This document shows positions 41,978 to 42,655 of a stretch of DNA of 64,000 nt, one piece after another (the stretch's first letter is position 1; each line of letters opens with the position of its first letter). Origin of the DNA: a virus; the IMG/VR virus record IMGVR_UViG_3300031746_002125, positions 8,450 to 72,449 of that record; one strand, given 5' to 3'. The notes beneath the pieces are model-generated. The model did not search any database, had not been told where the DNA came from, and saw nothing but the letters and a program-made list of their open reading frames with translations. A program made the position numbers and the translations under genes.

Positions 41978-42655
41978 GCCGAATGCGCAGCGACCCGATA
42001 ACTTCGGGAACGGTCGATAATTCGACCCGATATAGGCTTATTATATGCCATAAGCCCGCACGGTTCGGTTAGTCTGATAAGGGCGAGTAGCGCAAGGTAA
42101 AGTAGTTCTTTACTTGAAGCGCCAGCGAAGGGTTTTGTTATCGGCCCTGACTTCGGGCAATGCCCGATAAAAGGTTCTCATTCGGACGGGAGCGTCCGAT
42201 AAGGACGGAAGCCCGATAATAAGTCCGCGCTATCTAGGGCGCACTCCCTAGTGAGAGTCCGATAAGTTGTTCGGACAAGGGCGCAAGTCCCCTAGTCAGT
42301 CCCATAATCAATTCATGGAAGTCTCCCGACAAGAGCAGAATTAAAGTGGGGTCTCAACTGGTTATCGGCGGCGCGTCTGTCAACCCGAATAACTTGGGCG
42401 ATAACTAAGTTCTTATCGGTCCAACGGATTCTCGAAGTATTATTGAAGCGATACTCCTTCCATTGAAGCTATGGTCAAGTCTTGTGCAACGATTCGCTCG
42501 CGTAATTATCGGGTCTTGTAAGCAAGTCAAAGCTTACTTCGGTCTATTGTCGAGCGATAGTGTGAGACTTCAATCGCTGGTGGATGCCGCTTTCGGCTAA
42601 GGTCGATTGTTCGGGTTCGATAACTGGTCAATAATACTCAAACCAACTTTCAATT
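41978..42655 (+). ncRNA. Large structured ncRNA candidate (~680 nt)
   Basis: No ORF of 60 aa or more; GC-rich; many hairpins (GTCGA-TAAT-TCGAC, GGCTTAT..ATAAGCC, CTAGGG..CCCTAG, GTCCGA..TCGGAC) with TTCG/GCAA loops; 5' TAGCCGAA complementary to TTCGGCTA at 42592. Confidence 0.7.

Follow-up and report, generated by a model that had tools for sequence, protein, structure and literature searches.

Large and elaborately folded RNAs are rare in bacteria and phages, and GOLLD, ROOL, OLE and a few others are still without a known function. Phages and prophages encode GOLLD and ROOL, in many cases close to tRNA islands, and the two range from ~660 to >800 nt; they form nanocages consisting of RNA only, and what they do is unknown (Kretsch et al., bioRxiv 10.1101/2024.12.08.627333). 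The two are related neither in sequence nor in fold. Many GOLLD members are longer than 800 nt and are built of several domains, one part being variable and another conserved; one member is located downstream of a tRNA-Met gene. ROOL (Rumen-Originating, Ornate, Large) is ~600-660 nt, is rich in stems and has no known protein partner (10.1101/2024.12.08.627333).

The DNA considered here, termed the window, is a stretch of 64,000 nt representing bases 8450-72449 of the 72-kb IMG/VR record IMGVR_UViG_3300031746_002125, which is estimated to be 43% complete. The plus strand from position 41978 to at least 42706 is likely to be the gene of a large structured non-coding RNA of ~730 nt, the member of a family not described before, with the reservation that there are no RNA data on its transcription. 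How does it compare with GOLLD and ROOL? Similar to GOLLD, the window RNA is phage-encoded, variable domain by domain, and adjoins a tRNA-Met gene, which meets the criterion of a GOLLD-like location. Here, however, the tRNA is downstream of the RNA and a covariance-model match is absent; in addition, the window RNA is partly built from a 9-nt word that it shares with an upstream island of genes, and it is linked to a conserved gene for a small protein. With ROOL it has in common the phage or prophage origin, the nearby tRNAs, the large size, the many stems and the unknown function, but again a covariance-model match is lacking and the habitat of the window RNA is that of sediment metagenomes.

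Could the RNA be a divergent GOLLD or ROOL member? In favor of this is the same genre, i.e. a phage RNA of more than 600 nt near tRNA genes whose function is unknown. Shared context does not imply homology, however, since GOLLD and ROOL are themselves unrelated. The 4227 models of Rfam 15 were compared with the whole window at the gathering score, and with positions 41000-44000 at E<=10 with permissive filters. The first scan detected only tRNAs and the second gave nothing inside the RNA; GOLLD was not matched in either, nor was ROOL at E<=10. OLE, HEARO, RNase P, tmRNA, 6S and group I and II introns were also without a match in these scans. Apart from a tRNA, the only match within 41000-44000 was one to PsrR1 at 41677-41747 (19.7 bits vs a gathering score of 42), which is outside and upstream of the RNA. 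For the RNA that occupies the corresponding position in related phages (termed type R, see below), nine loci were compared with Rfam at E<=1, likewise without a match. Given these Rfam results, membership in either family is very unlikely. The literature searched contained no paper that describes the window RNA. An initial annotation, made from sequence alone, had left the choice between a divergent member of the GOLLD/ROOL type and a new class; this is supported, and the new class is the favored branch.

The locus, its homologues and its promoter

The window encodes a portal protein with a single, distant match among cultured phages (INPHARED), and the open reading frame at 8408-9904 is without a protein match in the same collection. 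Portal relatives are present in 61 IMG/VR loci, several of them on contigs of 160-181 kb. The source is an uncultivated clade of large phages with genomes of ~160-180 kb, from sediments. Sequencing runs that contain this DNA are represented by 16 DNA rows, consisting of 13 from sediment or freshwater sediment, one from soil, one from freshwater and one possible source; there is no RNA run. The G + C content is ~0.27-0.43 over positions 1-38000 vs 0.39-0.47 between 38 and 50 kb, a stretch that carries several HNH homing endonuclease genes together with tRNA genes, and it is 0.49 in the RNA stretch itself (41977-42709). The first gene 3' of the RNA is a tRNA-Met (anticodon CAT; 42911-42986, plus strand, ARAGORN), 205 nt past the last hairpin, and Rfam places a tRNA at 43455-43527.

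A gene for a conserved protein of 110 residues and unknown function, p110 (40954-41286, plus strand), marks the locus in all relatives, where its homologues are directly upstream of the RNA. It also provided the route to homologues of the RNA. DNA searches of cultured phages and of five related virus records produced motif-length matches at most, with no DNA match for the window RNA in INPHARED. A scan of metagenome contigs with the p110 alignment gave 36 loci, four of which align to the candidate. Locus L091 is 87.9% identical over window positions 41913-42926 (RNA body 87.7%) and L094 85.3% over 41913-42752 (RNA body 85.9%). L095 shows 75% identity over 41705-42058 and 92.6% over 42213-42752 (RNA body 83.9%), and L093 shows 95% up to 42058 but is more diverged beyond (RNA body 62.6%). 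In L094 and L095 the resemblance to the window does not extend past 42752. These five sequences are the whole of what is termed here the W-type family; a search of IMG/VR for further members with a 21-nt degenerate pattern yielded none. They were aligned with MAFFT, without fitting to any structure (alignment A4).

The region cannot encode a protein. Between 41960 and 42700 there are 8-17 stops per frame in all six frames, and the longest open reading frame on the plus strand is 45 codons, from a TTG. TAA, TAG and TGA are all present in every frame, thus no single stop reassignment opens a frame, and a protein gene with a recoded stop is ruled out. The four homologues also lack open frames over the RNA, with at least six stops per frame. 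A decayed gene was considered as well and rejected, as a tblastx comparison with the remainder of the window and with every locus retrieved gave nothing at E<=1.

Immediately upstream of the RNA is a sigma-70-type promoter, TTGACT-17-TATAAT (41943-41971, plus strand), which a promoter scan scored with 11 of 12 matches; the RNA body begins ~7 nt past it. The -35 element (GCTTGAC) does not vary among the five sequences of A4, nor does the -10 element together with the bases just before it (CGAGCATATAAT), while the spacer between the two elements differs in L095 and L093. The promoter hexamers are thus conserved.

Covariation and domain architecture

RNAalifold predicts 227 pairs from A4, and 220 were counted once the pairs that involve the promoter were removed. 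Standard pairs make up 94.6% of the cells over these 220. Sixty-three of the pairs have changed on both sides, vs 29.5 +/- 3.4 in shuffles, none of 500 of which reaches 63; when the 3' partner is moved by 1-3 columns, 4-12 double-changed pairs are left. Because the structure comes from the same alignment, the count was repeated with a fold predicted by energy minimisation from the window sequence by itself. Its 245 pairs have 90.3% of cells paired and 57 double changes, vs 7-12 with shifted partners, and again 0/500 shuffles match this. The RNA fold is maintained by compensating substitutions. How many lineages does this represent? In A4 the 5' domain of the window has the same sequence as in L091 and L094, and its middle and 3' domains have that of L095. 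The window is a domain-level recombinant of the other sequences, and the independent lineages therefore number about three per domain.

One might argue that the hairpins merely reflect a DNA word present in inverted copies within a non-coding spacer, with no RNA structure under selection. Several stems are indeed pairs of word and anti-word, the region is a mosaic in populations, and both strands fold better than shuffles. Helices without the island motif covary, however, e.g. 42436-42446 / 42628-42638, where 6 of 11 pairs are double-changed, and so do partners up to ~200 nt apart; arms are replaced with the pairing kept, and the strands are not equivalent. Since motif-free helices and helices spanning ~200 nt covary, the hairpins are not merely a by-product of inverted DNA motifs, and this explanation is considered very unlikely.

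Which strand carries the structure? Taken alone, the window sequence has a minimum free energy of -234.1 kcal/mol, with z-scores of -5.96 on the plus and -4.99 on the minus strand relative to dinucleotide shuffles (20 each). As both strands fold better than shuffles, single-sequence energy did not name the strand. The RNAalifold consensus does distinguish them, with -217.4 kcal/mol on the plus vs -171.9 on the minus strand, and the plus strand is the better-folding one. Many pairs broken as C-A in the reverse-complement consensus are G-U pairs on the plus strand. There are 140 G-U cells vs 17 A-C cells, a count that is biased to the plus strand, on which the structure was predicted. From the strand folding, the G-U counts and the invariant hexamers, the RNA appears to be read from the plus strand with a start near 41978, although RNA data on transcription are lacking.

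It is also conceivable that the pairing serves single-stranded DNA, for example at an origin of replication or in a signal for packaging or ejection, rather than an RNA. The element is within an unusual island of oriented words, and contigs of relatives often end near it. Against this, a promoter with invariant hexamers is positioned exactly upstream, and the frequent wobble pairs of the plus strand would be A-C mismatches on the minus strand. A multi-domain fold with long-range closing helices would also be typical of RNA, by inference. A single-stranded DNA signal thus appears very improbable, and the plus-strand RNA is the reading retained.

The fold is made up of three domains (5', middle and 3'), with a linker hairpin between the first two and a terminal hairpin after the third; a long-range helix closes every domain (all on the plus strand; helices are numbered as in the A4 consensus). 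The 5' domain (41978-42231, helices 1-12) starts with a closing helix, 41978-41984 / 42064-42070, around three hairpins. Further hairpins follow, as does the long helix 42136-42146 / 42213-42223, which is the word paired with its complement; double-changed pairs are present in helices 1-5, 7-9, 11 and 12. The linker hairpin (42234-42251, helix 13) has six pairs, two of them double-changed. The middle domain (42252-42434, helices 14-21) is closed by 42252-42261 / 42425-42434 and 42263-42274 / 42385-42396 (helices 14 and 15), where 98% of the cells are paired. The 3' domain (42436-42638) has a long branched arm inside its closing helix 22 (42436-42446 / 42628-42638), which spans ~200 nt, lacks the word and has all cells paired in its 11 pairs. 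The long-range helices closing the middle and 3' domains contribute three, two and six double-changed pairs, and helices 23, 24 and 26 of the 3' domain contribute nine, five and five. Whole arms, e.g. 42459-42584, have had their sequence replaced between lineages with the pairing kept.

The 3' end of the RNA is undefined, the last conserved hairpin ending at 42706. This terminal hairpin (42658-42706, helices 29-30) has no double change in the A4 consensus and no U run after it. It is kept in the single-sequence folds of all five homologues, and these folds, read by eye, display changes on both sides in L091 and L093. Sequence and fold suggest a possible terminator at 42795-42833 (plus strand), where TCTTTTTT comes after an imperfect hairpin. 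The terminator scan did not call it; the scan gave only a weak plus-strand site at 42856-42871, and no strong one between 42706 and the tRNA-Met gene at 42911.

How did the initial annotation fare? A structured non-coding RNA at this site held, and its supporting features (absence of open reading frames, high G + C, the promoter, strong folding and a nearby tRNA) were confirmed, as were stems formed by facing copies of the island motif, e.g. 42136-42146 with 42213-42223. The checks it had named that were run came out in its favor: no Rfam family was matched at E<=10, four covarying homologues were found with covariation far above controls, and folding was better than in dinucleotide shuffles on both strands. 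Other details failed. The proposed 3' limit of 42655 should be at least 42706. A 5'-3' pairing between 41976 and 42592 has 8/8 pairs in the window but 4, 0, 4 and 3 of 8 in L091, L094, L095 and L093, respectively; the 5' end of the RNA pairs with 42064-42070 instead in the A4 consensus. The TTCG and GCAA strings that were traced in the consensus fold are strands of helices or of long-range pairs and not the tetraloops they had been taken for. GGGCGC at 42280, for example, pairs long-range, and this explains the changes in L091 better than a GCAA (42284) hairpin.

The window RNA has so far revealed neither pseudoknots nor kissing loops. Reads of four DNA runs gave short contigs with joints that are best read as diverged domain variants. 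In X2 and X5, for example, the joint 42459->42613 is bridged by 135 letters of different sequence. The RNA region is also seen as a mosaic in populations in the DNA reads.

The type R RNA of related phages

In relatives, the stretch immediately 3' of p110 is poor in open reading frames and conserved at 70-80%. A profile of this sequence, type R, matches 29 of the 36 metagenomic p110 loci (weakly in L123 and L124, E 2.5e-5), and the W-type profile matches four further p110 loci; by BLAST, type R is present in 9 of 31 related virus records. Its start is 3-28 nt past the p110 match in the six loci compared (L096, L097, L099, L106, L110 and L125). An alignment of 13 non-redundant copies of ~1.05-1.18 kb (A6) yields a consensus of 217 pairs, in which 89.2% of the cells are paired and 121 pairs are double-changed. 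Shuffles have 60.0 +/- 4.7 such pairs (0/500 reach 121) and shifted partners 41-63. No DNA match to type R is present in cultured phages (INPHARED), and the RNA was not found in print in the literature searched. Among prokaryote genomes there were nine pattern matches, none of which was confirmed by R1, a covariance model of the type R core.

The window RNA is the positional counterpart of type R, between p110 and tRNA genes. The two share a phage clade, the order after p110 and before tRNAs, a large size (~1.0-1.1 kb in type R), strong covariation and the absence of an Rfam match. They differ in that type R begins right after the p110 stop codon with no promoter of its own, whereas the window RNA has one, and in that the 3' end of type R is a conserved terminator hairpin with a T run, before the tRNA.

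This bears on another explanation, in which the RNA acts in cis as a leader or precursor: the stretch of 730 nt might represent the 5' part of a transcript of tRNA-Met and later genes, serving only its processing or stability with no function of its own. The lack of a strong plus-strand terminator between 42706 and 42911 favors this. In addition, tRNA-Met directly follows the RNA in the window and in L093 (ARAGORN), and tRNAs are located within 0-1.5 kb after type R in three of the nine loci scanned. However, L091, L094 and L095 have no tRNA-Met (ARAGORN), the first tRNA there being a tRNA-Glu ~670-810 nt past the RNA, and the end of similarity at 42752 in L094 and L095 shows that what follows the RNA is not constant. 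The type R terminator hairpin before the tRNA also speaks against a leader, and it is inferred that leaders of tRNA operons do not usually reach this size, this amount of covariation or three closed domains. A leader role alone is thus unlikely, and an RNA with a function of its own remains the preferred interpretation.

Are the window RNA and type R homologous? The type R nhmmer profile detects nothing in the window at E<=10. R1, with filters off, found no domain in 41287-42910, where its best scores are 8.6 bits outside the RNA and 5.6 bits for an unpaired 20-nt string only. R2, a covariance model of the W-type middle domain, found nothing in the RNA of G005. Direct homology between W-type and type R has therefore not been shown by nhmmer, R1 or R2 searches. 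One relative, G003, has a syntenic stretch of 1.35 kb in which R1 matches 5655-5533 (11.9 bits, E 9e-4) and R2 matches 5508-5312 (14.8 bits, E 1e-3). The two matches adjoin each other in the correct order, and each is on the expected strand. Because the E-values are rough, these matches are only a lead. With scores this weak, it is no more than possible that G003 bridges W-type and type R.

The island word, p110 and a possible role

The island motif CCGATAA is present in 42 copies in the window, vs 9.8 +/- 2.9 expected, a number that none of 100 shuffles reaches. A strand-specific 9-nt word, TTAT[C/A/G]GGAC (C>A>G), forms an island upstream of the RNA (38194-41831, plus strand). There are 49 sense vs 6 antisense copies in 38101-41900. 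Six related islands have the same pattern, and the seven islands of related phages together hold 315 sense vs 46 antisense copies. Copies are present inside open reading frames, in different frames, and there is no information outside the nine positions of the word.

The word or its complement is also contained in the longest and best conserved blocks of the W-type and type R RNAs. All six anti-word sites of the window RNA have the CCN(A) part paired and the UAA largely unpaired. This produces a recurrent module, present six times, of a helix that ends in CCGA and is followed by an unpaired UAA, and it looks structural rather than like a set of free antisense seeds. The simple antisense reading, in which the anti-words act as free seeds, is demoted because CCN(A) is paired in all six copies, none of which is fully unpaired.

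Does p110 offer a clue to function? The protein has no Pfam or PHROG family. Its AlphaFold model is all-helical (pLDDT 83) and has no PDB fold match at E<=0.001 (best E 6.2). As p110 is acidic in 7 of 11 homologues (pI 4.6-5.6), it is not an obvious RNA binder.

A role for the RNA can at present only be inferred. Transcription by the host RNA polymerase would be early and strong, which no RNA data yet support. The RNA would act in trans as a folded scaffold, neither as a coding nor as a simple antisense RNA, where scaffolding or assembly is suggested by analogy only. The CCGA/UAA module would probably be a recognition element for a protein or for RNA-RNA contacts. It is also inferred that the RNA shares the functional genre of GOLLD and ROOL, large phage RNAs beside tRNA genes that form higher-order particles.

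A bolder reading combines these elements, and as a whole it must be considered unlikely. The window RNA, type R and the mixed form in G003 would constitute one modular superfamily of giant RNAs, co-inherited with p110 and serving as the hub of a word-based system. The word, which marks ~50 sense sites in the island of early genes, would form the conserved CCGA/UAA modules within the RNA. All early transcripts would then be linked to the RNA, either by one word-reading factor or by direct RNA-RNA contacts. The RNA might serve to decoy, to provide a platform for assembly or to switch early genes off, possibly with self-assembly similar to that of GOLLD and ROOL.

Even without this reading, the locus adds two new RNA classes of 0.7-1.1 kb, possibly related to each other, each with its own strong covariation. 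Both have a fixed context (p110, RNA, tRNAs) and a word that is shared with neighboring early genes. This context and the word provide experimental handles that are missing for GOLLD and ROOL: a protein that may be a partner, an element that may serve in recognition, and variants in which domains have been swapped naturally. Such handles could help explain why phages keep giant RNAs beside tRNA genes.

How did the window RNA come to have its own promoter? In the window, 692 nt separate p110 from the RNA. This gap starts with an intrinsic terminator after p110 (41321-41354, plus strand), where two facing copies of the word form 15 pairs before a T run. Further downstream is a remnant of an HNH-AP2 homing endonuclease gene (28 codons at 41582-41665, plus strand), which was detected by tblastn with the protein of 39425-39940 (21/28 identical, E 5e-9). 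The direct repeat D2 is found at this remnant, and the gap holds a promoter module that is repeated upstream of other island genes. Two strong promoters are present in the gap, that of the RNA and a second, upstream one, TTGACA-17-TATAAT (41707-41735, plus strand), with 12/12 matches in the promoter scan. It is inferred that, in the lineage of the window, a homing-endonuclease cassette would have inserted between p110 and the RNA and would have given the RNA a promoter of its own. A mobile endonuclease-promoter cassette appears, by this inference, to have split an ancestral p110-RNA unit, because the gap contains the endonuclease remnant, the repeated module and the promoters, and because window positions 41575-41975 are homologous to a stretch upstream of p110 in G003 (nhmmer E 2.5e-18).

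The p110 gene and a second RNA type

Related phages carry, directly 3' of the gene for p110 (in the window a 110-residue protein, encoded at 40954-41286), a second structured RNA of ~1.05-1.18 kb, designated type R. Copies from five of their loci, L072:7514-8647, L080:1340-2438, L083:641-1732 (minus strand), L079:5292-6376 and L076:5316-6389, were aligned together with eight more (alignment A6). The resulting consensus has 217 pairs; both sides have changed in 121 of these, a number that 0 of 500 shuffles reached. Type R has no match in Rfam, and it represents an undescribed RNA.

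The neighbouring gene product is itself conserved. The p110 homologues (alignment A2) are ~105-115 residues long, always with an RNA adjoining, and 7 of 11 are acidic (pI 4.6-5.6). p110 belongs to no family in either Pfam or PHROG. Its predicted fold is all-helical (pLDDT 83) and finds no match in the PDB with E<=0.001.

Kinship and mosaicism of the RNA locus

Are the two RNA types related? The syntenic RNA of the related phage G003 (locus L070, 5312-5655, minus strand) shows weak, adjacent matches on that strand to two covariance models: R1, of the type R core, at 5655-5533, and R2, of the middle domain of the window's RNA, at 5508-5312. This double match suggests a modular kinship between the window's RNA and type R.

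The window's RNA is a composite, with a 5' domain as in the homologue loci L091 and L094, and middle and 3' domains as in the homologue locus L095. In sediment metagenomes (DNA runs X2-X5), window 40800-43600 is represented by short contigs only, with many joints, and diverged versions replace entire RNA domains.

In several related phages, contigs end no more than a few kb from the island and the RNA locus: G001 (start), G008 (1171-1572), G013 (1272-1455), G014 (3399-3700) and G011 (158587-158793 of 160023). These might be assembly breaks in a hypervariable region or real genome ends.

Within the window, the tRNA finders Rfam and ARAGORN disagree. tRNA-like matches at 48579-48675 (97 nt) and 53005-53066 are found by Rfam and not by ARAGORN; tRNA-Met (42911-42986) and tRNA-Ile(TAT) (45481-45553) are called by ARAGORN and not by Rfam at gathering score.

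The word island and its modules

Across an early-gene island of 3-5 kb (GC 0.44-0.50), roughly every 70 nt brings another copy of the 9-nt word TTAT[C/A/G]GGAC; the word is strand-specific, and the ORFs of the islands also contain copies. In the window's island (38194-41831, plus strand) it appears 49 times in sense and 6 times in antisense orientation. Others lie in L070 (6200-8400, minus), L071 (5400-8500, minus) and L072 (3900-7200, plus), with further islands in L075, L076 and L079. The seven islands, window included, total 315 sense and 46 antisense copies.

Strong promoters in the window are preceded by repeated intergenic modules; repeated segments are at 39211-39352, 40675-40775 and 41356-41416, and at 39846-39927 with 41580-41661. 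At 41582-41665, an HNH-AP2 endonuclease gene has left a remnant of 28 codons. The island resembles a succession of mobile cassettes that carry promoters and endonuclease genes.

The p110 gene of G005 (locus L072) has a ~330-nt leader (L072 6840-7170) downstream of a TTGACC-17-TATAGT promoter. It is rich in word copies and hairpin-forming repeats, and might constitute another structured element.
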